Notes under the pieces: model-generated
Told to the model about the DNA's origin: nothing
The model's input: only the letters and a program-made list of their open reading frames with translations
The model's database searches: none
Assembly (NCBI GenBank): GCA_043803245.1
Contig: JAZDKE010000069.1
Coordinates: 1-59,056, forward strand
Length of the DNA: 59,056 bases
Direction: 5' to 3'
From: Chloroflexota bacterium
GTDB lineage: Bacteria > Chloroflexota > Dehalococcoidia > Dehalococcoidales > SURF-40
Shown: positions 8,282 to 59,056 of the stretch, piece after piece
How the letters are laid out: each line of letters opens with the position of its first letter
Position numbering within the stretch: position 1 is the stretch's first letter
Made by a program: the position numbers and the translations under genes

Positions 8282-9034
8282 TTAGAACAGGCTCAGGTAC
8301 CATCCGGTGATATTTTGCCCCCAGAGCAACATGACTGCGGTGGCAACCGCAAGGAAGGGGACGAACCCCATCACTTTAACTTTTCCCCGTTCCTTTGGCC
8401 CCGCCAGCCACCGCCAGCCGACCACCAGACCCGCGGCGGCAACCCCAATCAGCAGGGTTACCAGCCCTTCCGGGAAACCGAGCGCAAGGCCCACCAGACC
8501 CGCCATCTTAACGTCACCCCAGCCGGCGCTGCCCCGACCAAGACCCAGGGGCGCCATCACCAGCAGCCCCACGCCGACACCGACGAGGCCGTTCAGCAAC
8601 CCCGGGTCGCGGCCCAAGACGTTAATGAGCAGGATAACCACCGCCGCAGGATAAATCACCCTGCCCGGGAGGCTCCTTCGCTCCAGAGCGATAACCAGGA
8701 TAACCGTAAGCAGCGACCAATAAAAACAGGTTACGGCCAGCTCAAGGCTAAGGCCATAACGCGCCAGCAGAAGCACGAAGCCCGCCGCCGTCCCCAGTTC
8801 CACCCAGAGGATGCGCCGGGGAATCGGCGCCCGGCAGTGACGGCAGCGTCCCCCAAGCCCGAGGTAACTCGCCACCGGCACCAGGTCCCAGGCACGTAAA
8901 CGCTGGCCGCAGGCGGGGCAATGGGAAGGTGGGAACGCCAGGGACTGCTTTAGAGGTAAACGGTCAATGACGACGTTGAGAAAGCTGCCGATGGCCGCTC
9001 CCATTAAACCAAGGACCAGGTAGAAATACACCAT
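8282..9034 (-). CDS. pilD: Prepilin peptidase (A24)
   Basis: GSFLNVVIDRLP, SHCPAC...GRCRHC, GWGDVKM. The first catalytic xD position reads ALE. ATG at 9034. Confidence 0.88.
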   Translation of the reverse strand: MVYFYLVLGLMGAAIGSFLNVVIDRLPLKQSLAFPPSHCPACGQRLRAWDLVPVASYLGLGGRCRHCRAPIPRRILWVELGTAAGFVLLLARYGLSLELAVTCFYWSLLTVILVIALERRSLPGRVIYPAAVVILLINVLGRDPGLLNGLVGVGVGLLVMAPLGLGRGSAGWGDVKMAGLVGLALGFPEGLVTLLIGVAAAGLVVGWRWLAGPKERGKVKVMGFVPFLAVATAVMLLWGQNITGWYLSLF

Positions 9035-9220
9035 AACCAACTCCCGATTCTGCCCGAGCTATAACTTTATGTCAATAGGACTTTCTTACTAAGCCGATAG
9101 TGACCATTACGCTATTTACCATCCCTATATTAAAGTAGGATACTGGTCTTAAGTCAAACAAGTTACCCAAAGGAGGTGGAAGTCATGATGTCCAAGATTA
9201 AAACAAAGGGGGTAAGCTCA

Positions 9221-9598
9221 ATGAAGAAATTCTTCCGCAATTTCCAATACGGCGAGAAGGGCTTCACGCTGATTGAGCTGCTGGTGGTCGTGGCGATTTT
9301 GGGCGTACTGGCCGCGGTGGCGGTGCCCAATGTCGGCAAGTTTATGAGTAAAGGCAAAACCGAAGCCGCCAACACCGAGCTGCACAACGTCCAGACGGCG
9401 GTACTGGCCGGTATGGCTGACGCCAACGTTGGCACCATCACCGGCGGCACGCTGCAAGCTCCTGCCTCCGATGTGTCCATCAATGCCACAGCCACGGTGG
9501 GTGATTACATCGTCGGCGGCGTTGCCAAAGTCCAGGGTACATACACGGTCGGCACCGATGGCACGGTCGATCAGACCGCCTATCCCGGCGTACCCTAA
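9221..9598 (+). CDS. pilA: Type IV major pilin
   Basis: Class III signal EKG/FTLIELLVVVAILGVLAAVAVP; strong SD. Confidence 0.9.
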   Translation: MKKFFRNFQYGEKGFTLIELLVVVAILGVLAAVAVPNVGKFMSKGKTEAANTELHNVQTAVLAGMADANVGTITGGTLQAPASDVSINATATVGDYIVGGVAKVQGTYTVGTDGTVDQTAYPGVP

Positions 9599-9680
9599 TC
9601 TGATTCATTCGGGACTAACTTAAGAGGAACTCGGAAGTTTGGAAGCCTGGTCAAGGATTCCACTCCTTGGGAACTCTAAA

Positions 9681-9710
9681 AGGAAGGCCGGTCGTACGAC
9701 CGGCCTTCCT
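9681..9710. terminator. Perfect 30-bp palindrome between convergent pilA and pilT
   Basis: AGGAAGGCCGGTCGT/ACGACCGGCCTTCCT, preceded by AAA (T tract on the minus strand). Confidence 0.7.
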
Positions 9711-9923
9711 CATTTCGGTAACTTTTTTCCACACCTTGCGGTCGGGGGTACAAGTCTATCTCACCTCCGTTGCCCGGCATCCTGGAGGTGTATTTGGGAA
9801 GATGCCGGAAGAGCGGCCTTCTTCGACTTCACGGTCGGGGAATTTGAGTGAGGCAGGTTCATTAAACGGGGATGAGGTCGTTGATGAAATTTCAGTGCGA
9901 GCAAACCCGGTAGTGGACCGGGA

Positions 9924-10997
9924 CTACGCGTAGGGCGCCATTGTGATTAGCTTTTCGACTTCGTCGCGGTCGTTGCAGACGGCAAAGAGTTGTTCCCGGC
10001 TGATGACGCCCTTGCGAAAGAGGCCTACCAGCGATTGGTCCATCATCACCATGCCGCTCTGAGCGTTGGTCCGAATCATATTAGGCAATTGATAGAGCTT
10101 GCCTTCCCGTATCAGATTTCTCACCGACGGGATAGCCAGCATAACCTCTATCGCCACCACCCGTCCGGAACCATTCATCCTGGGGACGAGGAGCTGGCAA
10201 ATGACACCCAGCAGGAGGGTCGCCAGCCGCGTCTGTACCAGATTACGCTCGTGGGGCGGGAACAAATCGATAATGCGCTCCACCGCCTGGGTGGCACTGG
10301 AAGCGTGGCCGGTGGTCAGCACCAGATGACCCGTCTCGGCCACGTTAAGCACCGCGGCTGCGGTTTCGGTGTCTCTCATTTCCCCCACTAAAATCACGTC
10401 CGGGTCCTGGCGCAGGACATGTCTCAAAGACTCGGCGAAGGACAGCGTGTCCTGGCCCAACTCTCGCTGGGTGATGACGCATTTCTGGCTGGGGTGGAGA
10501 TACTCCACCGGGTCTTCAATGGTAACTACCCGGCGCTTTTCGCTCGCGTTTAGATGCTTCAGCATGGCTGCCAGTGTGGTGCTCTTGCCGCTACCGGTCG
10601 GCCCGCTGACCATAATCAACCCCCTGGGCCGGAGGATAAGCTCCTTGCACACCGGAGGAAGTCCCAGTTCGTCAATATCGTGAACAACCGGGGGTAAAAT
10701 ACGGATGACCATGCTGACGGTCCCCTGCTGGTAGGCCGCATTGCAGCGCGCCCGGCGACCTTCCGGTAGAGTGTAGCTAAAGTCGAGCTCTTTGCGGCGC
10801 TCGAACTCAGCCTGCTGCTCGGGTGTGGTAATCTGGCAAAAGGCGTCCTTTATGTCATCATCAGTCAGAGACGCCGCGGCTTCCAGCGGCTCCAGATAGC
10901 CGTTAATACGCAATATCGGCGGCCGCGCCACAATCAGGTGCACGTCAGAGGCACCCCGTTCACCGGCGGCCGTAAGCAGCGATATGATATCCATCAT
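9924..10997 (-). CDS. pilT: Type IV pilus retraction ATPase
   Basis: GASDVHL, Walker A GPTGSGKSTT, TIEDPVE, LRQDPDVILVGEMRD, VRNLIREGK. Confidence 0.93.
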   Translation of the reverse strand: MMDIISLLTAAGERGASDVHLIVARPPILRINGYLEPLEAAASLTDDDIKDAFCQITTPEQQAEFERRKELDFSYTLPEGRRARCNAAYQQGTVSMVIRILPPVVHDIDELGLPPVCKELILRPRGLIMVSGPTGSGKSTTLAAMLKHLNASEKRRVVTIEDPVEYLHPSQKCVITQRELGQDTLSFAESLRHVLRQDPDVILVGEMRDTETAAAVLNVAETGHLVLTTGHASSATQAVERIIDLFPPHERNLVQTRLATLLLGVICQLLVPRMNGSGRVVAIEVMLAIPSVRNLIREGKLYQLPNMIRTNAQSGMVMMDQSLVGLFRKGVISREQLFAVCNDRDEVEKLITMAPYA

Positions 10998-11008
10998 GTC
11001 CGTCTCCG

Positions 11009-12445
11009 CTAATGACTGAGCGTTAACCGGAACTCGGTGCGCGCCTGGCTTGCCCCGATAAAGGTAACGGTGACCCCCGGGAAACGTCCGCTCTCCCTGA
11101 GTCGCCGGCCATAGGCCAGGGCTTCATCCTCACCCGATGCCCCGCCGTCCACCAGCACCTTGTCACCGCTATAGCTGATATCAATGATATTCACCCCGGC
11201 CACCAGATTATCCTGAATGGCCGACAGGTCGCCGTTCACCCTTTCCTGCCAGCGGCTAAAGGTCAGGGACAGCGACTTAAACCTGGCCGAGCTCGCTTCG
11301 AGCTCTTTAAGATTCGCCTCCAGCGCCTGAATCTCTTTTCTCTGTGCGGCCACCTCTTTTTGCCGCTTGGTGACGAACTGCTGTTTGGCATCAAGACCAA
11401 CCTGCAATGAGCTGACGCTGGCCACCGTCTCCCTGACCAGCAGAACCATCGGCACCAGCAGGCCAACCGCCATTATGGTTCCCGCCACCGTCACCACCAC
11501 CGCCCGGGAAATGGGCTTGGGGCGGTGTTCCACGGGGAGGGCATTGATATTGACCACCGAAGCGCGGCCCTTGCGCCCGGCCCGGGTTTCTTTCAGGGCC
11601 AGACCGATGTTGACCAGGTACCGGCCGGCGGGAAAGTCCTCGGGGCACTTCAAGGGCGACTCCAACATCAACACCGGATGCTTGAGGTTACTGACCTTGT
11701 TTAAGTCAAGGCCTTCCGCCAGTTCCCCGGAGACCAGTATCGGTACCTCAGTGTCCAGCGGACTTCTTGCCTGAGTGGAATTATAGAATTTTACCGTCCG
11801 CTCCAGTTCTTCCCCGATAAGCGCCAGTTTCTCATCCCAGGAGAGGGTCTTTTCCAGGGATACCGTGCGTGCCAGCTGCGGTACCCGCCCGACCATGACC
11901 ACGATATTAAGCTCGGTGGGCTGCAGGTCGGCGATGATGGCGGTATCACGGTCGACTGCCCGGGACAAAGCCAGCGGTTTTAAGTCGATGAGGTAAGGGT
12001 TAAGCCCCGCCGCCCGCACGGCACCGACCAAAGTGTCAACCATATTACGGGGCAGGGCCGCCAGAAAAGCCTTGATCTCATGCCCCTGCCGTCCGAGGAC
12101 CTGCCAGCTGATGTAGAGCTGGTCGAGGGGTATCGGCAGGGCTTTCTCCGCTTCCAGTTTCACCGCGCTGGTCAGGAGGGGGCCGGAGACATCGGGCAGA
12201 ACGAGGACTCTGAAGAAACAGTGAATGCCGCTGAGGCCAGCCACTACCTTTTTGGTCCGCACTTTTTGGGAACCGAGGAGCGACGCGATTTTAGCCGCGA
12301 CTTCAGATTCGTTAGCGACTACCCCATCTTTGACCAGTCCCGGCTCAAGCGGGCAGTCCGCCCACTTCTTAATCTGGGCACCTTTCGTCACCAGCAACTG
12401 GAGACGGCTATCGTCGAGGTATAAAGTCACCACTCTTTTGGCCAT
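11009..12445 (-). CDS. pilM: Fused PilM-PilN type IV pilus assembly protein
   Basis: Actin-like PilM N-terminus (PLEPGLVKDG, EAEKALPIPLD, IGLALK), then INALP + TM + coiled coil + PilN-like C-terminus. Confidence 0.75.
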   Translation of the reverse strand: MAKRVVTLYLDDSRLQLLVTKGAQIKKWADCPLEPGLVKDGVVANESEVAAKIASLLGSQKVRTKKVVAGLSGIHCFFRVLVLPDVSGPLLTSAVKLEAEKALPIPLDQLYISWQVLGRQGHEIKAFLAALPRNMVDTLVGAVRAAGLNPYLIDLKPLALSRAVDRDTAIIADLQPTELNIVVMVGRVPQLARTVSLEKTLSWDEKLALIGEELERTVKFYNSTQARSPLDTEVPILVSGELAEGLDLNKVSNLKHPVLMLESPLKCPEDFPAGRYLVNIGLALKETRAGRKGRASVVNINALPVEHRPKPISRAVVVTVAGTIMAVGLLVPMVLLVRETVASVSSLQVGLDAKQQFVTKRQKEVAAQRKEIQALEANLKELEASSARFKSLSLTFSRWQERVNGDLSAIQDNLVAGVNIIDISYSGDKVLVDGGASGEDEALAYGRRLRESGRFPGVTVTFIGASQARTEFRLTLSH

Positions 12446-12447
12446 GA

Positions 12448-13053
12448 TTAACCACCCCGGTAATCATAAATCATTAAGGTAACCGTTATCATGGGCATTT
12501 CGACCGGACCCTCCTCACCACCAGCCTCAGGGTCAACGGTACCGCTCTCGGCTTCATCAGGTACATTTATCCGCGCCGACATTACCACGCCGGTGCCGTA
12601 TTTTGCCGTGAGCCCGGAGACAAAATCTACCAGGTCAGCCACCGTACCTTCGGCCTTGACCGTTACCAGTATCACCGAACATTTGACACCGCCGATTTCT
12701 TTTTCCGAGACCGCCGACGAATCAATCCGGGCGATGGTCACATCACTCTGCCCGGCAATGTCATAGATATCACCGCTGTTCTCAATCGTCTCCAGAGATT
12801 GTCGGAGGCGGCCCTTCTCCGCCGCCACCTCAACCCTGACCTTTTCCAAACGGCTCTGGAGGGCTTCTTTTTGTGAGACCAGCCCGGTGCTGGCCAATTT
12901 CTCAATCAGCAAACCGGCCTGGGCCATTTCCTGCTCGGCGCGGGCCCGGGCTTGAATCTGCTGTAGCTGTACCATGCTAAGACTGAGCAGAGCAATCAGG
13001 AAGACGCCAGCCCCCAGAAGCACCCTTGATTTATTACTCAGCTTAAACTTCAT
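12448..13053 (-). CDS. PilO-like pilus assembly protein
   Basis: N-terminal TM, coiled coil, ferredoxin-like C-domain (VTVKAEGTVADLVDFV); lies in the pil operon. Confidence 0.6.
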   Translation of the reverse strand: MKFKLSNKSRVLLGAGVFLIALLSLSMVQLQQIQARARAEQEMAQAGLLIEKLASTGLVSQKEALQSRLEKVRVEVAAEKGRLRQSLETIENSGDIYDIAGQSDVTIARIDSSAVSEKEIGGVKCSVILVTVKAEGTVADLVDFVSGLTAKYGTGVVMSARINVPDEAESGTVDPEAGGEEGPVEMPMITVTLMIYDYRGG

Positions 13054-13090
13054 CCGGGATTCCCCCGATTAAACTTTCCGATGGCCGCAA

Positions 13091-14302
13091 CTAACCCAGC
13101 TGACCGTACATGGAATACATCGCCTGCACCAGCGACAGGGTAATAAAAGCGACCACGCCGCCGATTACCACGGTGGTGACCGGCTGTATCATGGCGATGA
13201 GGACTTTGGTCTTTTCCTGGGACTCAACCTCGTAGCTCTCGGCAAGGGCCAGCAGGTTGGTGTCCAGACCACCGGTTTCCTCACCAATCCTGACCATCAG
13301 GACCAGCATGGGTAGAAAAATCTGCTTTTTGGCCATTGGCTGGGACAGCCCTTCGCCGCTGAACATACCCTTCTCCACGTCACGCAGAGCCTCTTTCACT
13401 ACCTGGTTGTTGCTCCCCTCGATAAGCAGCGACATTATCTCGGTAAGGGGTAAGCCAGCCTTAAAGAGCAGGGCCAGGCTGCGGCAGAAACTGGCCAGCT
13501 CAGCCAGCAGGTTAATGCGTCCGAACAGCGGCATTTTTAACGAGATGCTGTCCCAGACGTATCTGCCCTTTTTCGTCCGGACATAGCCGAAAGCACCGGC
13601 GACAACGGTCCCCAGGCCAGCGAGGAGGTGCAGCCCGTAGGTATTAAGAAAGTCAACCGAATTGAGCAGCAGCCTGGTCTGGGCCGGCAGTTCAATCGAA
13701 AGGTTGCGGTAAAGGCTGGTGAAGGCCGGCAGGACAAAGGTCACCAGGACACCGACCACGGCCACCGCCAGCACGGTAACGATTACCGGATAGAGCAAGG
13801 CATTCTTGACGCCCTTGCGGGCATTCAATTCTTTCTCCATGTAATCGGCAATCTGCCGGAGCACCGTTTCCATACCGCCGGTGCGTTCCCCCACGCTGAG
13901 CAGGCGATGGCATATCGGGGGAAAGACGTCAGGGTATTTCTTGATAGCGGTGGACAGCCGACTGCCGCCGCGCAACTCGGAGATTATCTCGGCCAGCACT
14001 TTCCTGAAGATACGGTTCGTTTCCTGTGATTTCAGGAGCTCCAGCGCGGTAACGATATCAATACCGGACTCAAAAAGCATGGCCACCTGACGGCAGAAGA
14101 AGATAACGGCCCCCGGCTTGATGCGGAAAAGAGATGGGAGCATGGTTTCCCAGTTGAGCTGCGACCGGCGGCTCGTTTTCAGGCTCAGAACGTCGGTGCT
14201 CTGGCCGGCCAATATCCGTAGCGCTGTCTCATGGCTCGAAGCCGCCACCGTGCCCCAGACCAGTTTCTTATCCTCTTTATAGCCAATGTAATGAAATTCC
14301 AT
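13091..14302 (-). CDS. pilC: Type IV pilus / T2SS inner-membrane platform protein
   Basis: MEFHYIG start; two GspF repeats (VGERTG...ALLYP; IGEETG...MIQP). Confidence 0.92.
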   Translation of the reverse strand: MEFHYIGYKEDKKLVWGTVAASSHETALRILAGQSTDVLSLKTSRRSQLNWETMLPSLFRIKPGAVIFFCRQVAMLFESGIDIVTALELLKSQETNRIFRKVLAEIISELRGGSRLSTAIKKYPDVFPPICHRLLSVGERTGGMETVLRQIADYMEKELNARKGVKNALLYPVIVTVLAVAVVGVLVTFVLPAFTSLYRNLSIELPAQTRLLLNSVDFLNTYGLHLLAGLGTVVAGAFGYVRTKKGRYVWDSISLKMPLFGRINLLAELASFCRSLALLFKAGLPLTEIMSLLIEGSNNQVVKEALRDVEKGMFSGEGLSQPMAKKQIFLPMLVLMVRIGEETGGLDTNLLALAESYEVESQEKTKVLIAMIQPVTTVVIGGVVAFITLSLVQAMYSMYGQLG

Positions 14303-14306
14303 CAAC

Positions 14307-16427
14307 CTAATCCGAAGAGAAGACGTTACGCAGAATCTCACACGGCGTGGTTATCCCCGCCTTGACCTTGAGCATGCCGTCGTGCCACATTGACGACATA
14401 CCTTCCTTGAGGGCCTGCGCCCGAATCTGGTCCGAGCCGGCCCCGGCCAGTATCCTGGTCCGTATTTCGTCACTCATGGTAAGCATCTCGAAAGCCGCGA
14501 CACGGCCCTGGTAGCCGGTATTGGCACAGGAGTTGCAGCCGCGACCATAATAGAACTCGGTGCGCTCTTCGCCGGTCTCCTGGCAGTAAGCAAGGCGGGC
14601 TTCGACCGGGGCCTTACGGAAGTCACGGCACTTGTGACAGATGCGGCGCACCATTCTCTGGGCAACGCTGCCCGCCAGCGACGATGAGACCAGGTAGGGC
14701 GGCACCCCCAGGTCCAGCAGCCGGAAAATAGCGCCCACGGCATCATTGGCGTGGATGGAAGCCATCACCAGATGCCCGGTGAGCGCCGCCTGGACGGCAA
14801 TCTCGGCTGTCTCCGGGTCCCGTACCTCGCCGACCAGGATGACATCGGGGTCAAGCCGCATAATCGCCCGCAGACCGGTGGCAAAGGTCAGCCCGGCCCG
14901 GGGATTTATCTGAACCTGGCTGATGTTCTGATAGCGGTACTCCACCGGGTCCTCAACGGTGATGATTTTGCGTCCCTTACAGTCGAGGCTTTTCAGCGAG
15001 GCGTAGAGCGTGGTGGTCTTGCCCGAACCGGTAGGGCCGCTGATTAAAATCATGCCGAAGGGGAACTTGAGCATTTTCCCGTAGACCGCCAGGTTCTCCC
15101 TGGAGAAGCCAAGCTGGTCCAGGCTTAGTCCCGCGAAGGAGGTATCCAGAATACGCAGCACCGCCATTTCGCCGTAAGCGGTGAAGATGGTGGCCACTCT
15201 CACGTCCACCCTTCTGCCCGTAACCATGATTGAGAACTGACCGTCCTGCGGCCGGCGCTGGTCGGCGATGTTCATATTGGCCATTATCTTGAGCCGCGAA
15301 ATAAGCGGCGACTGGGCGCTCGTGGGTAGAGTCATCGCTTCGTGGAGAACACCGTCGATGCGGTAACGAACTACAATGCCTTTCTCGGTGGGCTCGATAT
15401 GAATGTCTGAAGAGTGGTTTTTGATGGCCTCTTTCATCAGCAGGTCAAGCGCCCTCACGACCGGGGCGTTGGTAACGCTCTCGCTGGCCGTTTTGTCCTC
15501 TTTAACCGTGCGGGGGTCCTCGGTCTTAAACTGCTTCTCAATCTCAGCGTAAGCCTTGTAGTTACGGTCAATCGCCCGGCGGATATCATCGCGGTCAGCC
15601 ACTACCAGCTCAATCCTCATCCTGGCCCAGGCAGTCAGCGCCTCAAGGGTGGTAATATCATCGGCGTCCGTAGCCGCCACCTGGAGCACGTTTTCCATAA
15701 CCCTGATGGGGATGACATCAAATTTACGGGCGATACCCTCGGGGATGAGCTTGAGAGCCTCAGGCTGAATCGGGCAGGTATTGAGGTCAATGAGAGACTG
15801 GCCCAGCGTGGAGATAACCGCCCCCGCTTCAGGTTCCGGCTCAGTCATTATTTCAAGGCGCGAGAACAGGTTCTTAAACTCTTCCCTCTTATGGGAAAGT
15901 TCACCAGCGGCAGTCTCCAGGCTCGAAGGCGACGCGAAATCCAGGCCGGAAAACACCCGCTCCAGCTCCTGGCTTTTAACACCACCGTCGGTGACCTTAT
16001 CAGCTTTCCCCGCCTCAGCCGCCGGCGCCGCCACTCCGGGAGCTTCTTTGTAAGGAACCACGATTTCTTTGTCAGGAACGGGGAGTTGGTAATTATCGTC
16101 AATCGCTTTTTTGATTTCATCCGCGGTGGCGATGAGGGGCACGATTTTCTTCCTGGTACGTGAGGTCAGGGCATCCAGCACCAGTATATCATCGGCATCC
16201 GCCACCGCCAGTTGCATGACATCATCGTTCACCGAAATCGGTATCAGGTTATGGTGCCGGGCAATCGCCTCGGAAACCAGGCGAAGGGCACCCGGGTCAA
16301 TCTTGAGCAAACCGGGATTTATACAGGGTATGCCCTTTTGCGCCCCCAGCGCCTTGGCCAGGTCTTCGGGGCTGATAACGCCCCGCTCAACCAGTATCTC
16401 CCCCAGCCTCGGCTTCTTGTCCTTCAT
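14307..16427 (-). CDS. pilB: Type IV pilus extension ATPase with MshEN motif and duplicated N-domain
   Basis: RLGEILVERGVI; SSDIHIEP; GPTGSGKTTT; MRLDPDVILVGEVRD; tetra-Cys Zn motif. Confidence 0.93.
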   Translation of the reverse strand: MKDKKPRLGEILVERGVISPEDLAKALGAQKGIPCINPGLLKIDPGALRLVSEAIARHHNLIPISVNDDVMQLAVADADDILVLDALTSRTRKKIVPLIATADEIKKAIDDNYQLPVPDKEIVVPYKEAPGVAAPAAEAGKADKVTDGGVKSQELERVFSGLDFASPSSLETAAGELSHKREEFKNLFSRLEIMTEPEPEAGAVISTLGQSLIDLNTCPIQPEALKLIPEGIARKFDVIPIRVMENVLQVAATDADDITTLEALTAWARMRIELVVADRDDIRRAIDRNYKAYAEIEKQFKTEDPRTVKEDKTASESVTNAPVVRALDLLMKEAIKNHSSDIHIEPTEKGIVVRYRIDGVLHEAMTLPTSAQSPLISRLKIMANMNIADQRRPQDGQFSIMVTGRRVDVRVATIFTAYGEMAVLRILDTSFAGLSLDQLGFSRENLAVYGKMLKFPFGMILISGPTGSGKTTTLYASLKSLDCKGRKIITVEDPVEYRYQNISQVQINPRAGLTFATGLRAIMRLDPDVILVGEVRDPETAEIAVQAALTGHLVMASIHANDAVGAIFRLLDLGVPPYLVSSSLAGSVAQRMVRRICHKCRDFRKAPVEARLAYCQETGEERTEFYYGRGCNSCANTGYQGRVAAFEMLTMSDEIRTRILAGAGSDQIRAQALKEGMSSMWHDGMLKVKAGITTPCEILRNVFSSD

Positions 16428-16712
16428 CTCCAGCCTCTCGCCAGCCGCAATTGCCACCAGCCAGGCCAATCCGGCCATACCTTGACACCGAAAGAGCTAT
16501 TTCCTTTGATTTGGGAATGCGACCCGGTTTAATTCTAAGGGGAGAAAAGGACGGCTACAATATTACTTTAGGGCTATCAATCGTGGTAATTTGGTCATCT
16601 TGCGGGCAGTACCCGGAGACCCGCCATGGGTAAATGAGTGTCGAAGATAAAAATGACTGCGCCGTGGGATTACTATTACCGAGGAGAGTTAGAGGAGAGT
16701 TATGGGAGATGG

Positions 16713-17456
16713 CTAGCTATCCAGACCTTCCGGCCTGGTGTGGGCGGTCTTGAAGTCAATATTCTGGAGGGGCTTCTCCACCCGTGAGGGAATCCAGCCG
16801 TAGTGCATGGCCATCACCACGGCCTGGGTCCGGTCATTGGCGTCCAGCTTGCGCAGGATGGAGGTGATATGGTTCTTAATCGTTTGTTCGCTGATGGAGA
16901 GCTTATAGGCCACCTGCTTGTTCATGTAGCCCTGGGCCACGTAGCTCAAGATTTCCAGCTCCCTGGGAGTGAGCGGCGTCGCCAGTGTCTCCATCGCCCG
17001 GCCCAGGAGAGAAATATCCTGGAACTGCTTCAGCACCTTCTCGGCCACATGGGGCCGGTCAAGGACAATCTCGTTAATGGGACGCTCACCACGGCGGATT
17101 CTCCTGACCATGGAAATGATGTCTTCAGCTTTGGCTTCTTTGGAGAGGTAACCGATGGCGCCGGACTTAACGGTTTGAAAGAGCTGCTCGTCGTCCTCGT
17201 AGGGGGTCAGCACCACCACCGCGATGGCCGGGGAATGGCGGGTTATCTGACGCGCCAGGTCCAGACCGATAAATAGCGGCAGGCCAATATCCACCAGCAC
17301 CACCTCCGGCGAGAGGTCGGCTACCATCTCGGGGGCCCGGCTGTCCAGTTCGGCCTCGCCCGCGAGCTCAATGTCGTCGACTTCGGTAAAAGCCTGCTTT
17401 AGCCCCTTGCGGAAGAGGCTGTTGTTATCGACTAAAAATACCTGAATTTTGTCCAT
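16713..17456 (-). CDS. NarL/LuxR-family response regulator (no kinase gene adjacent)
   Basis: Receiver domain (LVDNN, VLVDIGLP, GYLSK) and LuxR HTH (LTPRELEIL...NKQVA...TIKNH). ATG at 17456. Confidence 0.92.
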   Translation of the reverse strand: MDKIQVFLVDNNSLFRKGLKQAFTEVDDIELAGEAELDSRAPEMVADLSPEVVLVDIGLPLFIGLDLARQITRHSPAIAVVVLTPYEDDEQLFQTVKSGAIGYLSKEAKAEDIISMVRRIRRGERPINEIVLDRPHVAEKVLKQFQDISLLGRAMETLATPLTPRELEILSYVAQGYMNKQVAYKLSISEQTIKNHITSILRKLDANDRTQAVVMAMHYGWIPSRVEKPLQNIDFKTAHTRPEGLDS

Positions 17457-17609
17457 TTGGCGTAAATAAGCTATACTACCCTCTATTATAGAGGTTAATA
17501 TACACGCCCTGCTATCATTTGTCAATAGGCTCGAAAAAGAACGCACGGGCTTTACCGAATTCGAAGCTTAGGGTAAAATGAAGTCTAACCTTATGACTGG
17601 GGGATAAAA

Positions 17610-54032: not shown

Positions 54033-54662
54033 TCAACCGACGTTTCTGATGACGCCGATAACCTTCCCCTGTATCTCCACATTATCCGTTGGCTCGTAGA
54101 ACGGCGCCATCTGCCGGTTAGCCGGCTGCAGGCGGATGCGGCCTGCCTCGCGATAAATCCTCTTTAAGGTCATCTCCTGCTGAGCTTTGAGCCAGACCGC
54201 CACCATGTCACCGTCAGCCACCGTACCGGTCTGCTGCAGGAGCACCACATCACCATCATCAATCAGGGCGTCAATCATCGAGGTGCCTTTAACCTTGAGT
54301 GCATAAACATCTTCCCGGCCGCGGACCATTGATTCGGCTACCGGGAGCATACTCTCGGGCACCGTCTGCCAGGCGTCAGAACCGGGCACCGGCAGCGGCT
54401 GGCCGGCGGCGATGGTGCCCATAAGGGGCACGCTGCTTGTCCGGGCCGTTCCCGCCCGACTCAGCCGGATGCTGCGGAACACCCTGGGGTCACGCTGAAT
54501 GTGGCCTTCCCGCTTCAGTATGTCAAGATGATACTGGACTACCGAGGAAGTGCTGATATCACATCCCCGGACGATGTCCCTGACGGTGGGGGCATAACCC
54601 CGCTCATTAAGGAAATCGCTGATGAAGCTCAGAATGCGCTGTCTCTTACGGGAAACCGGCAT
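54033..54662 (-). CDS. lexA: SOS repressor LexA
   Basis: wHTH (GYAPTVRDI...STSSVVQYHL), cleavage site IAAG, GTSM (Ser), TLKR (Lys). Confidence 0.95.
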   Translation of the reverse strand: MPVSRKRQRILSFISDFLNERGYAPTVRDIVRGCDISTSSVVQYHLDILKREGHIQRDPRVFRSIRLSRAGTARTSSVPLMGTIAAGQPLPVPGSDAWQTVPESMLPVAESMVRGREDVYALKVKGTSMIDALIDDGDVVLLQQTGTVADGDMVAVWLKAQQEMTLKRIYREAGRIRLQPANRQMAPFYEPTDNVEIQGKVIGVIRNVG

Positions 54663-54673
54663 CAGTCCCTCTT

Positions 54674-54745
54674 GATACAAGCGTTCTATTGAACGAATTT
54701 ATCACAAGTAAGCCGGGTTGTCAATAGTCTTGGCCGTGATATACT
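54674..54745. promoter_or_regulatory. Back-to-back lexA and comEA promoters with tandem degenerate LexA boxes
   Basis: Minus: TTGACA(54724-54719)-N17-TAAATT with TGn. Plus: TTGTCA(54718)-N16-TATACT with TGn. Imperfect palindrome GATACAAGCGTTC-TATT-GAACGAATTTATC at 54674-54703 contains GTTC/GAAC half-sites. Confidence 0.65.
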
Positions 54746-54770: not shown

Positions 54771-55277
54771 ATGGCAGAAGACAGGACCGGCAAACTCTGG
54801 GCATCATTAATAATCTTATTGTTAATCGCAATCGCCGTAAGCGGCTACTTCGTCTGGCAGGGACTCTCGGGGCACCGTCCCCTGGAAATTGAGCTAGCTC
54901 CGGCGCCACTCTTCGATGGTGAAATATACATTGGCGGCGACGTCGCCAGCCCCGGTTATTACCCCTTCAGTTCCGATGACCGGCTACTAGAGCTGATGCG
55001 GGCTGCCGGCGGGATGACCAAACCCGGGGCCGGGCAGTGGCGGCTCGGTGTTTACGAGGCTGAGGCCGAGCCGGCCCCACAGCGAATCGACATTAACCGC
55101 GCTGAAGTCTGGCTGCTCAAGACCCTGCCGGGCATCGGGGACGCCCGCGCCCAGGCCATCGTCAACTACCGTGTCCAGAACGGCCACTTCCGCAACATCA
55201 ACGAGCTTACTAGCGTGCCCGGTATCGGCCCCGAGACCCTGGCACAGGTGAGAGACATGATTACGGTGGCCGGCTGA
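54771..55277 (+). CDS. comEA: Competence DNA receptor ComEA
   Basis: N-terminal TM, SLBB (IYIGGDVASPGYY), HhH (IDINRA...LPGIG..RAQAIV.YR..NG.F...EL..VPGIG). Confidence 0.93.
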   Translation: MAEDRTGKLWASLIILLLIAIAVSGYFVWQGLSGHRPLEIELAPAPLFDGEIYIGGDVASPGYYPFSSDDRLLELMRAAGGMTKPGAGQWRLGVYEAEAEPAPQRIDINRAEVWLLKTLPGIGDARAQAIVNYRVQNGHFRNINELTSVPGIGPETLAQVRDMITVAG

Positions 55278-55293: not shown

Positions 55294-57105
55294 GTGACAC
55301 TGGTATATATCAGCGGAGCGTGGCTTGTGGGCATTTTCCTGGGGTCGAAGTTTGACCTCTCGGCAGCGCTGGCGGCCATCGGTCTTGCTCCCCTGGCGGT
55401 TTTGATATTCCGCCGCGGCAACACCCGGGCGGTGATACTGAGCACCATTTGTCTGATAACCTTCCTTGGTGCGGCTCTCTATTTCCCGTTACGCCTGCCC
55501 GCCACTGATAAGTCGACAATCAGTTTTTACCACGAACAGGCCGGAACAACGCTCAAGGGTCTGGTTAGCTCGCAGCCTGAGACCGGCGGCCAGCAGACGC
55601 AGCTCCGCTTTACGGCCCAGGAAATTAAAATAGCCGACCGGTGGCAGGAGATTTCGGGCACTGCCCTGGTGTACGTACCGGCCTACTCCGAATACCGCTA
55701 CGGCGACCGGCTTTTGCTCAGTGGCCAGCCCCAGACACCGCCCCGGTTCGATGACTTCGACTACCGTGATTACCTGGCGCACCAGGGCATCAGCACCATC
55801 ATCTTCTATCCCAGGATTGAAATCCTGTCCCGCGACCAGGGCTCCAGAATACTGGGCTGGGTCTACGGCCTCAGGAGTAATCTAGGGCAAGCCCTGGCCA
55901 GGGCGCTGCCGGAACCGCAGGCCTCGCTGGCCCAGGGCATTACCCTCGGCCTCAGGGGAAATATCCCGCCAGAGCTGAACCAGAACTTCTCACGCACCGG
56001 CACCACGCACGTATTGGCTATCTCCGGCCTCAACCTCAGCATTATTGCCGGTATCTTCCTGAGCCTTGGCCTGTGGCTCTTTGGCCGCCGTCACTATTTC
56101 TACGTCTGGCTCGCCCTGGGCAGCATCTGGGGCTACGCCCTGATTACCGGCCTGGAAGCACCCGTGGTCCGGGGCGCTATCATGGCCAGCCTTTTCCTGG
56201 TTGGCGAGATGCTGGGACGGCAGCGCAGCGCCATTACCGCCCTGGCGCTGGCCGCCGCGCTGATGGTGGCGCTGGACCCGCAGGTGCTCTGGACGGTCTC
56301 CTTCCAGATGAGCTTCCTGGCAATGGCCGGGCTGATGGCGGTCTTTCCCAGGCTCCAGGCCCTGGGCCGCAAAGCTGTTAAAGCCAGGCTGGGCGATAGC
56401 GGCCGGGTCGTCTCCGGTGCCAATTTTTTAAGCGACAGTTTCAGCGTCAGCCTGGCGGCTATCTTAACCACCTGGCCCCTAACCGCCTATTACTTCGGCA
56501 TCATCGCCTTTACCGGCCTGCTGGCCAACCTGCTGGCCCTGCCGGCCTTGCCGGGTATCATCGTCACCGGAGCGCTCACCAGCGTTATAGGGCTGATTGC
56601 CCCGGTCGCAGCCCAGGCTACCGGCTGGCTGGCCTGGCTTTTTCTTTCGTACCTGGTGCTGGTGGTCAATGCTTTCGCCGCCTGGCCGGGTTCCGCCCTG
56701 CAAGCCGGCGCCGGCAGTGCCCTCCTGGTCTGGGGCTACTACCCGGTCCTCGCCGCACTTCTCTGGTTGTCCAGCCGCCGCAGCCTTACCGGAGCGATAA
56801 CCCGGGCTTGCGTCAGCCTGAAGACGGCCATCTCCGGGGTAAATATCCGTGTAGCGAAGTGGGCCGTTCCGCCCCTGCTGGTTGCCGCGATCCTGCTCTC
56901 GCTGGCCGCCGCCACTATGCCCGATAAAAAGCTCCGTATCAGCGTCTTAGACGTGGGCCAGGGTGAGGCTATTTTAGTCCAGACGCCCGCCCGCCAGGAC
57001 ATCCTGATTGACGGCGGTCCCGACCCGCAGGCCGTAATCCGGGAACTGGGACGGAAGATGCCGTTCTGGGACCGGACGATTGACCTGTCAATGGTGACAG
57101 CGTAA
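55294..57105 (+). pseudogene. comEC: DNA uptake channel ComEC/Rec2, interrupted at the start of its metallo-beta-lactamase domain
   Basis: OB/DUF4131 (FDYRDYL), competence domain (GTTHVLAISGLN, SFQMSF), MBL start (VLDVGQGEAI, ILIDGGP, FWDRTIDL), then SMVTA* instead of the expected continuation to the THxxxDH motif. Confidence 0.9.
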
Positions 57106-58633
57106 CACCCACTTTTGGATTGATTATCCCGGTCGCTTCCACGCTCTCGCCGTCAATCCAAACCGTAATACCGAGCATATCCAGGGCAAGACGCTTGCCC
57201 TCATAATCAAAGTTCGGCAGTTCCTTTTGCATATCCCCGATAAACTTTTCAAAGTCCGGCAAGTTGATAGCGGCCTTTTGGCTAGCCTTAAGCTGTGCTC
57301 CTAAGTCGGCTTTTTGCGCTTTCAGTGTTTCGCGGGTCTTGTTAATTCTTATGTTTTCGCTTTCTACCTGGCTTTCCTGAAAGCCCTTTCGTAAAGCTAG
57401 CTGTAAAAGCTGACATTGCTCGCGGTCAATGACTTTGAGCTGGTGCTCGATGCGCACTAGTTCGGCCTCGTAGATACCAGCCCGTTCCGCATCACGGCGC
57501 TGATTGGTAAGCCTATTCTTAATAAAGTCGCGGTCACCTAGATAGCTTTCAAGTTCCGCCCATACCATAGCTTCCAGCTTGTCGGCCATCCAGTTCTTAT
57601 TATGGCAACGATTAACCGGCTCGTTTACTTTCAACTTGCCCAAGCAGCGGTAACGGCGCTTGGCATATCGTTTGCCTTTGACAACCTTGCTGTGAATACC
57701 GCCGGTGAAGGCCCGCCCGCATTGCCGGCAGCGGATATGCCCACGCAATAAATACTCGTGCTTAGGCGTGTTATTCATTCGGTGCCGGTTATCCTGTAAA
57801 CGTTGCTGCGCTGCGTCAAATAACTCTGTGCTGATTATGGCCGGGGTAACATCAGGTATCTCTATCCAATCCGATTGTGGCCGGGTGAATTGCTTATGGC
57901 CTTTGGCGGTAGTGAAGGCGTAGGTTTTGCCAGTGTAGCTTTTGTTAGTGAGGATAGCCTTTACAACTTGTTTGCTCCAATGCCCGCCGCCTAGCTTGGT
58001 GGGTGCGACCTGCTCGTTAAGCCGGGTAGCTATGCCGCTGGTGGCTATGCCCTCATTGACTAGCCACTGGTATATTTGACGTACCCAGGCGGCCTCAGTT
58101 TCGTTTGTGACGCGCCGCCCGCTATGGCTGTCTACTGCCTTGACGTAATCGTAGCCGTAACACCGGGCAAAGCCGCCGCCCGGTATGTATCCCATTTTGG
58201 CCTTAGCTTTTCTACCGCGCCCAGTGCGTTCCTTTATCTTTTCAGCTTCAATCTTGGCGGCAAAAGTTCGTATATAACTAATCAGTTTGCCAAGCTCTGA
58301 ATTATCAACGTCCTCAGTAACGGCTTCCAACTTGACACGGTGCTTTTCAAGCTCCTGCGTGATGATAACGCCGCAGCCAGGGTCACGAGTAAGCCGGTCA
58401 AGGCTGTAAATCACTACCACGTCAAGAGCCTCAGCCCTCACCAGCTCGCGCAATTCGTCCAACTTTGGCCGTTCAAGGGATAGCCCGCTATATGCTTCAG
58501 AATAGCGATAGGACACGTCATAGCCTTTGCCCTGGCAGTAGGTAAGGCAAGCCTCAAGCTGTGTCTGTAAGCTGGTGCCCTCGCGTTCCTGGCTATCCGA
58601 GCTTACCCGGCAGTACACGGCTGCGGTTGTCAT
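56969..58633 (-). CDS. Large serine recombinase (integrase)
   Basis: YCRVSS catalytic motif, SG...RP, SLDRLTR, recombinase domain (YGY, NKSYTG, PAIIS.ELF), Zn ribbon (LLRGHIRCRQCG...YRC...C), coiled coil, KRLAL. ATG 58633 after SD GGAAGG. Confidence 0.93.
   Translation of the reverse strand: MTTAAVYCRVSSDSQEREGTSLQTQLEACLTYCQGKGYDVSYRYSEAYSGLSLERPKLDELRELVRAEALDVVVIYSLDRLTRDPGCGVIITQELEKHRVKLEAVTEDVDNSELGKLISYIRTFAAKIEAEKIKERTGRGRKAKAKMGYIPGGGFARCYGYDYVKAVDSHSGRRVTNETEAAWVRQIYQWLVNEGIATSGIATRLNEQVAPTKLGGGHWSKQVVKAILTNKSYTGKTYAFTTAKGHKQFTRPQSDWIEIPDVTPAIISTELFDAAQQRLQDNRHRMNNTPKHEYLLRGHIRCRQCGRAFTGGIHSKVVKGKRYAKRRYRCLGKLKVNEPVNRCHNKNWMADKLEAMVWAELESYLGDRDFIKNRLTNQRRDAERAGIYEAELVRIEHQLKVIDREQCQLLQLALRKGFQESQVESENIRINKTRETLKAQKADLGAQLKASQKAAINLPDFEKFIGDMQKELPNFDYEGKRLALDMLGITVWIDGESVEATGIINPKVGVTLSPLTGQSSGPRTASSVPVPGLRPAGRDRRQSGCPGGRASGLK
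57079..57092. mobile_element. Putative hybrid att site (serine-integrase crossover) in comEC
   Basis: Perfect inverted repeat ATTGAC-CT-GTCAAT around a 2-bp core, exactly where ComEC similarity ends. Confidence 0.75.
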
Positions 58634-58791
58634 TCTCTTACCTTCCTTTGTGGCCCGGATTGCTTTACCTTTGGTCGATTCCAGTAGGGACTTATGCACT
58701 TTGGACAATGTTCTGGTAACACTGGCTTCCGTGGTATCCAGGTATGCCCGCAACGTAGGCACTTCAGCGTGGGTAACTTGATATCTACCAT
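58630..58791 (-). CDS. Small Zn-ribbon protein (53 aa), translationally coupled to the integrase
   Basis: MVDIKLPTLKCLRCGHTWIPRKPVLPEHCPKCISPYWNRPK...; two CxxC; ATGA overlap with the integrase start. Confidence 0.8.
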   Translation of the reverse strand: MVDIKLPTLKCLRCGHTWIPRKPVLPEHCPKCISPYWNRPKVKQSGPQRKVRE

Positions 58792-58797
58792 ACCGTT

Positions 58798-58826
58798 ATT
58801 ATATAAGTTCACTTGTATATTGTCAA
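58798..58826 (-). promoter_or_regulatory. Perfect consensus sigma70 promoter with overlapping inverted repeat; leaderless arrangement
   Basis: TTGACA-N17-TATAAT, 6 nt before ATG 58791. TATATAAGT-TC-ACTTGTATA dyad at 58800-58819. Confidence 0.85.
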
Positions 58827-58844
58827 TACCTTTTGCCATTATTT

Positions 58845-59056
58845 TTACCTTGCCTTAGCCCGGTGTGCGTTAATCTCCGCTATGTAGGCGTTATATTTAT
58901 CCGCCGGTATCCTATCGTCCACGAAATGAATTCCGCGTTCAGCTATGCCATAGACGTAATGGGGCTTTGCACCATCTACGCCCACGGCCCTGCGGTCAAC
59001 GTAGCGCCATTTGTACCACTTGGAGATTAGAGACAATAGACTGGCGTATGGCACCC
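58845..59056 (-). CDS. 3' part of an element-encoded hypothetical protein (start probably outside window)
   Basis: Open frame to the window edge: ...SLLSLISKWYKWRYVDRRAV...YVYGIAERGIHF; loosely winged-helix-like. Confidence 0.5.
   Translation of the reverse strand, partial: VPYASLLSLISKWYKWRYVDRRAVGVDGAKPHYVYGIAERGIHFVDDRIPADKYNAYIAEINAHRAKAR

Follow-up and report, generated by a model that had tools for sequence, protein, structure and literature searches.

A serine-integrase element at one codon of comEC in an uncultured Dehalococcoidales-like bacterium

The interrupted comEC gene

The stretch of DNA analyzed here (the window, 59,056 nucleotides, nt) is the entire contig C69 of a metagenome-assembled bin of 1.13 Mb (70 contigs, 78% complete) from a Dehalococcoidales-like member of the Chloroflexota. 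Close to its end lies a truncated comEC gene, followed on the opposite strand by the gene for a large serine integrase. The comEC 5' fragment, identified by Pfam and by alignment with relatives, is an open reading frame (ORF) of 603 amino acids (aa) at 55294..57105 on the plus strand, which is host derived up to 57087 and takes its last five codons and stop from the inserted element. The ORF ends in ...FWDRTIDLSMVTA and a stop codon; at this break point the relatives read ...FWDRTIDLVILTHPHADH..., and their frame goes on as ...TIDLVILTHPHADH.... Pfam found the DUF4131 and Competence domains in the window ORF and did not find Lactamase_B, and the ORF stops just before the HxHxDH metal motif, which follows the break point in relatives. 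The combination of DUF4131, Competence, Lactamase_B and HxHxDH on one polypeptide, which marks a three-domain ComEC, is not present in it. A reading made earlier from the letters of the window (the sequence-only reading) had ComEC running normally to FWDRTIDL and stopping five codons later, before the metal motif, and both the alignment with relatives and the Pfam matches bear this out.

A comEC match was obtained in 32 of the 41 related genomes searched, the window's own included. In 20 of the 31 other genomes the gene was open without internal stops for 799 to 824 aa, and the remaining 11 matches were split genes or contig-end pieces. None of the 31 ended at the window's break codon, so the refutation that the sequence-only reading had held out for itself, relatives whose comEC naturally ends here, did not materialize. 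The window comEC is a broken three-domain gene and not a natural two-domain form.

Nucleotide similarity to the comEC of a same-genus genome ends after 57087 (break at 57087/57088), and at this junction the GC content drops from 0.62-0.66 (about 0.64) to 0.45-0.54 (about 0.50). The dyad ATTGAC-CT-GTCAAT lies at 57079..57092 in the hybrid attachment site of the comEC-side junction, its left arm in host comEC and its right arm in the integrase-proximal end of the element. Perfect 6+2+6 dyads are not unusual in themselves (17 observed in the window, 14.4 expected), and this one matters because it coincides exactly with the break in likeness rather than because dyads are rare. A dyad at the break, followed by lower-GC DNA with a large serine recombinase, had already been noticed from the letters, and the sequence, the GC profile and the Pfam matches agree with that description.

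Among public runs, parts of the stretch were present only in two groundwater runs from one study (shares of 0.15 and 0.07). One groundwater-run contig, from a relative about 90% alike, tracks the window as far as 57087, where it departs from it and goes on to encode VILTHPHADH; this contig represents an empty site. A 522-base public contig (run X1, 99% alike) ends exactly at 57087, the last base common to occupied and empty sites. Such an end is expected of a branch in the assembly graph and hints, weakly, at a mixture of the two kinds of site. Element part 57211-57717 had next to no cover in either groundwater run, which is uninformative, and neither run gave a contig bridging the junction.

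The integrase and the small ORFs of the element

The visible part of the inserted element (57088..59056), delimited by the GC drop and by its lack of likeness to the comEC of relatives, runs off the contig end at 59056, 1.97 kb inside the element. It holds the integrase ORF, at 56969..58636 on the minus strand with its ATG at 58636, which was recognized through Pfam, PHROG and PDB matches. Homology to the rest of the family covers 57089-58636 (516 aa), beyond which the ORF crosses the junction and adds 39 codons, antisense to comEC, before its stop at 56969. Three Pfam families were matched, all above their cut-offs: Resolvase (PF00239, 102.8 bits against a cut-off of 23.3), Recombinase (PF07508, 76.4 bits) and Zn_ribbon_recom (PF13408, 47.6 bits). 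The protein also matched PHROG 95, "integrase," with an E value of 3.9e-96. Its VYCRVSSDSQ segment, serine motif included, aligned with IYTRVSTTNQ in the catalytic domain of the TP901-1 integrase (PDB chain), and residues 256-501 aligned with the C-terminal-domain structure of the A118 integrase (PDB). S12, C303, C306, C331 and C344 are invariant in the integrase family (30 members for S12). Judged by these matches, with a resolvase-type catalytic domain followed by Recombinase and zinc-ribbon domains, the protein is a large serine recombinase.

Directly upstream, at 58630..58839 on the minus strand, is an ORF of 69 aa with a CxxC...CxxC zinc-ribbon pattern, the stop of which overlaps the integrase start (ATGA). 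By tblastn, relatives of about 60-70 aa were found in 55 other loci, mostly directly upstream of the integrase and in a few cases with an intervening gene, and an alignment of 43 rows shows no change at C27, C30, C45, C48 or W53. Searches of Pfam, PHROG and Atlas placed the protein in no family; its role may be that of an accessory subunit, a directionality factor or a regulator. A complex prediction with integrase residues 140-516 gave a score of 0.01, which is evidence neither way. A second small ORF of the element, at the contig end (58845..59054, minus strand), had weak relatives in 4 other loci (tblastn) and no Pfam or PHROG family.

Recurrence of the insertion at the same codon

The integrase was searched for in 363 genomes of the same order, 135 of which had a relative at an E value of ≤1e-20, and 30 loci were fetched. 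One of these loci besides the window has comEC: on a contig of genome G193 (L022), a 71%-identical integrase is followed by same-strand comEC aa 602-808, and the 5' part of the G193 gene lies on a separate contig, ending at aa 534. Metagenome contigs were also scanned, and the best 80 of 290 integrase relatives were taken. In 11 of these 80 loci, tblastn placed comEC beside the integrase. Seven carry the comEC 3' part from aa 602 (L058, L059, L073, L079, L085, L098 and L123), and two carry the comEC 5' end antisense to the integrase, which is the window's arrangement (L075 and L095). The other two, L108 and L136, carry antisense aa 1-159 and define a second comEC site, after DFDY (about aa 158). 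Their integrases form a clade apart (support 100), and the L136 flank matches the comEC DUF4131 domain (Pfam). L082, which has a short flank, was recognized by eye and by flank clustering as an eighth parallel case and a twelfth comEC locus.

Integrases that are 56-71% identical thus lie against comEC at this one Leu codon in a second genome and in 10 of the 80 metagenome loci, with both orientations represented. This confirms that the insertion in comEC is real and site-specific, and it answers two points of the sequence-only reading, which had proposed that a serine-integrase element targets comEC in a Chloroflexota host and had called for homologous integrases inserted repeatedly at the same comEC codon. 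In IMG/VR the integrase matched one locus (L050), which has no comEC beside it, and no match was obtained there with an exact 37-base word taken from the end of the element; a scan of genome contigs gave six integrase loci, none with comEC.

Probable crossover dinucleotide and polarity of insertion

Junctions were read outward from the integrase gene and anchored on conserved coding motifs, which brought 13 related loci into register; the length of the element arm was then constant within each clade. In parallel insertions the arm is followed by CT (L022, L059 and L123) or TT (L073, L082, L085, L098 and L079) and then by GGT..., the rest of the host Leu-Val codons. In all three antiparallel insertions (the window, L095 and L075) it is followed by AG and then by the reverse complement of host ...ATTGA(C/G). 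L058 is out of register by 3 nt, with 3 extra bases and one comEC codon fewer, and was not assigned a core. The same host dinucleotide is likely to be the crossover in both orientation classes, with the element carrying CT/TT or its complement. In the window this would be the CT at 57085..57086, which forms codon positions 1 and 2 of the Leu in FWDRTIDL, so that the comparison of these hybrid junctions in register favors the CT core suggested by the sequence-only reading. Likeness to intact comEC ends at most 3 nt from this CT.

The polarity of serine integrases is set by the central dinucleotide alone, as established in work on Bxb1 and phiC31, and the CT/AG pattern read from these junctions matches this rule. 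The host site is itself near-palindromic (ATTGAC-CT-GGTAAT in a same-genus genome), which makes both orientations of insertion plausible.

Beside the gene for a close relative of the window integrase, L057:2315-2400 is AT-rich non-coding DNA with symmetric arms, CAACGC...GCGTTG, around AA. This flank may be an unintegrated attachment site.

It was also observed that the integrase ORF spans the crossover across the family (56969-57110 in the window; likewise in L022, L059, L073, L085, L025 and others). In the second comEC clade the integrase stop codons are formed right at the junction, and in the window a 39-aa tail is added. Since the flanking DNA provides the last residues or the stop, the integrase protein must differ between the integrated and the excised state.

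Clades of the integrase family and their other target genes

A FastTree phylogeny was built from 101 distinct full-length integrases (115 loci minus 6 partial ones, including L022, and minus 8 identical duplicates). The window integrase grouped with those of L058, L059 and L057 (support 100), and L095 fell within a second comEC clade together with L079, L098, L073, L082 and L085 (support 99); L123 and L075 were placed elsewhere. From these positions, no fewer than three clades use the Leu-codon site, and antiparallel insertion is seen three separate times. Targets cluster on the tree, requiring 11 changes compared with 23.4 when the labels were shuffled, so each clade has its own site. The integrase family is widespread in Dehalococcoidia, and its targets are clade specific.

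Several of the other targets are associated with competence. A cluster of 15 loci adjoins radC; 12 belong to the 80 metagenome loci, and L113 matches the RadC N-terminal domain. L109, with radC in sense orientation, was assigned by eye only. A type IV pilin gene is adjoined at its N-terminal FTLIELL motif in L110, L115, L116, L126 and L121, all from one integrase clade, with L121 matching N_methyl. In L033, a genome locus with a more distant integrase, comM is cut inside its Mg_chelatase domain. Altogether, comEC, radC or the pilin gene is adjoined in 29-30 of the 80 metagenome loci, and these three genes plus comM make up the majority of the flanks that could be named. Insertion inside the coding sequence of an uptake or competence gene recurs at one site across taxa.

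The only radC of the window's own genome (C21:185-1223; L137 and L138) matches RadC profile positions 2-102 of 121 and adjoins an antisense C-terminal remnant, 123-132 aa long, of a related serine integrase, the 5' side of the remnant being replaced by other sequence at the contig start. Two competence-associated genes are therefore cut in one genome, comEC by an intact element and radC by a decayed relative.

Cargo in relatives at the same site

The cargo of such elements is known from 10 kb each of two relatives at the same comEC site, L059 and L123. L059:1-10000 encodes a primase-polymerase/D5-type helicase, a type II restriction-modification pair and a trypsin-like protease, and L123:1-10000 encodes a radical-SAM protein, a HerA-type ATPase, an HNH protein and a small resolvase. 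The comEC 5' part is absent from the 10 kb of element in both. By their gene content these two look like integrative islands with variable, partly defense-type cargo rather than tailed prophages.

Competence genes elsewhere in the window and genome

Directly 5' of comEC lies an intact comEA (54771..55277, plus strand; Pfam HHH_3 at 72 bits, and SLBB), and directly upstream of comEA-comEC is a divergent lexA (54033-54680, minus strand; LexA_DNA_bind and Peptidase_S24). A type IV pilus cluster at 8282-17546 consists, all in open frames, of pilD, a pilin gene, pilT, a pilM-like gene, an unassigned ORF of 200 aa, pilC and pilB. The expected Pfam families were present in pilD, the pilin gene, pilT, the pilM-like gene, pilC and pilB (8282-16478) as well as in comEA, in keeping with the earlier statement that the remaining uptake machinery is intact. 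A gene for a LuxR-type response regulator adjoins the pilus cluster. Elsewhere in the genome comM is intact, and dprA gave no match above the cut-off in this incomplete bin.

Discussion

We propose that a large serine integrase inserted its own integrative element site-specifically into comEC, and we hold this mechanism as a whole to be probable (about 0.8). The contig would show only the integrase end of the element (1.97 kb). Crossover would have taken place at the CT that opens the Leu codon at the boundary of FWDRTIDL and VILTHPH, so that the junction in the window would be a hybrid site on the comEC 5' side, with the last 20 nt or so of the integrase gene serving as the element's arm. The cut keeps the OB-fold and channel domains and removes the catalytic part of the metallo-beta-lactamase nuclease domain. 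Since this catalytic part is removed, DNA uptake is most likely lost or crippled, and we predict that loss or a strong reduction of uptake is the likely consequence. In Legionella, mutation of metal-site residues in the ComEC nuclease domain is reported to have abolished transformation (PMC12455585). Many targets of the family, namely comEC at two sites, radC, the type IV pilin gene and comM, are associated with uptake or competence, and by disrupting such genes an element could avoid being deleted by transformation. Excision by the serine integrase would be expected to restore comEC exactly, with no indication of a programmed switch. For the present genome, the case for restoration of the frame is one of analogy alone, with the right-hand junctions of the relatives.

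Several observations weigh against this proposal. The distal comEC fragment with its metal-binding motif, which the sequence-only reading had expected further along, was not found in the window's own assembly: tblastn with a same-genus ComEC of 810 aa gave a single match, the window itself, and a family search for Lactamase_B in this genome gave six genes, all unrelated to comEC. Nor did blastn and tblastn find the rest of the element in the same assembly, where they matched only the window and the C21 remnant. With the 3' part and the further element missing from the assembly, the junction here rests on one assembled contig together with its recurrence elsewhere. Target genes other than comEC were assigned from tblastx flank clusters in which one representative per cluster was tested with Pfam. 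They include genes unrelated to competence (a BNR-repeat protein gene in 6-7 loci, IspD and transaldolase) and several intergenic GC-rich hairpins, and targeting may therefore follow sequence conservation rather than competence. Finally, of 51 strains known to be transformable, 14 are reported to have a ComEC that naturally lacks the nuclease domain (PMC6299819), and some function might therefore survive truncation.

These last two points speak for an unlikely alternative, in which conserved motifs are neutral places to land, a ComEC reduced to OB fold and channel remains functional and the link to competence is incidental. Every recognized site does fall within a highly conserved motif (FWDRTIDL/THPH, DFDY, the pilin FTLIELL and the HNHPSG region of radC), the family also enters genes unrelated to competence, and transformable bacteria with a nuclease-less ComEC are described (PMC6299819). 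However, four competence-associated genes account for most nameable flanks, with 29-30 of the 80 metagenome loci at comEC, radC or the pilin gene, and independent use of the comEC Leu codon is seen in at least three integrase clades. The cut, moreover, falls inside the nuclease fold and not at a domain border, and metal-site mutants of a three-domain ComEC are reported to be non-transformable (PMC12455585). A wrong joining of host comEC to a foreign integrase contig during assembly would be in keeping with a metagenome-assembled bin of 70 contigs and 78% completeness and with a contig that ends inside the element, but the same junction geometry and codon recur in independent assemblies (one genome and 10 metagenome loci), which makes a chimera very unlikely, and the two sides share only a few bases, far below an assembler's word length.

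The sequence-only reading had left the choice between silencing of transformation and a switch that restores comEC on cue. Serine integrases excise precisely, and precise excision is what a switch would need if the element were to stay in comEC and be excised without loss, as in the Listeria comK prophage or Bacillus skin and SPbeta. The integrase ORF is intact with its catalytic-serine motif, the comEC 5' fragments of the window and its relatives and the 3' fragments of the relatives are still open frames, and the conserved small protein, whose translation is coupled to that of the integrase, is a candidate accessory factor. Yet a recent insertion would leave open host fragments just as well, the candidate accessory protein could be placed in none of the Pfam, PHROG and Atlas families, and neither a directionality factor nor any host-side logic was found. 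Neither an empty site nor a circular form came to light for this population, in an analysis that included no reads from its source sample. Given both orientations, several competence genes and varied cargo (restriction-modification, HerA ATPase), selfish targeting fits better than a switch tuned by the host. Silencing, the simpler option, fits published precedent; nothing was found in support of the switch, which we regard as improbable.

The disruption of competence genes by mobile elements is already published, so a single insertion is no surprise. Croucher et al. (2016) argue that elements disrupt competence genes and so escape deletion by transformation (PMC4774983), and a 2025 review tabulates competence-gene insertions, comEC included (PMC12378983). 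In streptococci, Phi1207.3, Phi10394.4 and Tn1207.1/mega are reported to insert at a GA dinucleotide in comEC/celB and to encode serine recombinases (PMC4260502). Phi1207.3, Phi10394.4 and Tn1207.1 resemble the window element, as far as these accounts go, in combining serine-family recombinases, one dinucleotide inside comEC and a disrupted pore gene (PMC4260502, PMC4774983). The likeness is one of description, and the streptococcal elements differ in belonging to Firmicutes rather than Dehalococcoidia, in their site and GA core, and in being prophages or resistance islands with several recombinases.

Other known systems share the recombinase architecture. The Listeria comK prophage is a documented excision switch. 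The integrases of the comK phages A118 and phi10403S have the same architecture as the window integrase, and those of A118 and U153 are about 27% identical to it over 96% of the length; the targets and hosts differ, and no evidence of such a switch was found for the window element. Relatives of the Listeria comK integrase are reported in comFA and radC (PMC4774983), so that the A118 family, like that of the window, appears as one integrase family retargeted among competence genes (PMC4774983). The sr1 recombinase of Wolbachia phage WO, a large serine recombinase with 28% identity to the window integrase over 95% of the length, is described as splitting a ComM-like Mg-chelatase gene (PMC9203015), much as the family member at L033 splits comM. 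Phage WO differs in being a tailed prophage of an intracellular bacterium, and its targets are not framed as competence genes. In Bacillus subtilis, the large serine recombinases of SPbeta (SprA) and skin (SpoIVCA) split spsM and sigK, respectively, and can restore the split gene by excision; SprA chains matched the window integrase weakly. SPbeta and skin are developmentally programmed rearrangements with a known directionality factor, and in this they differ from the window element. Within the window's own bacterial class, the ssrA-specific islands of Dehalococcoides are described as driven by serine recombinases (PMC3146451); these too are likened by description, and they differ in that the tmRNA gene is entered without being destroyed (PMC3146451).

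A literature search returned no paper joining a large serine recombinase, attB and comEC, and a search on Dehalococcoid- serine recombinases and comEC/radC integration sites returned for this group only the ssrA-island paper. Among the matches listed for natural transformation, none mentions Dehalococcoid-. What is new here is the phylum, the sites, and the spread of a single integrase family, clade by clade, over sites in four competence-associated genes.

A wider and more tentative proposal, which we think possible but doubtful, is that a Dehalococcoidia-wide lineage of serine-integrase islands specializes in uptake genes (comEC at two sites, radC, the pilin gene and comM). It would flip its polarity through a complementary central dinucleotide and keep an attachment arm within the integrase gene, so that integration alters the C-terminal tail or stop of the protein, possibly providing integration-dependent control. 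The naturally paired integrases that use the same comEC site with opposite polarity could be useful for learning how serine integrases set direction.

The setting of these insertions is an uncultured Chloroflexota lineage with small genomes, in which, to our knowledge, natural transformation has never been demonstrated. The family offers a natural data set for testing, outside pathogens, the hypothesis that elements block their own curing by transformation. Its family-wide targeting suggests that DNA uptake matters in these organisms, and if the wider proposal of a lineage specialized in uptake genes is correct, such elements would be indirect evidence of natural transformation as an active force in uncultured Dehalococcoidia.

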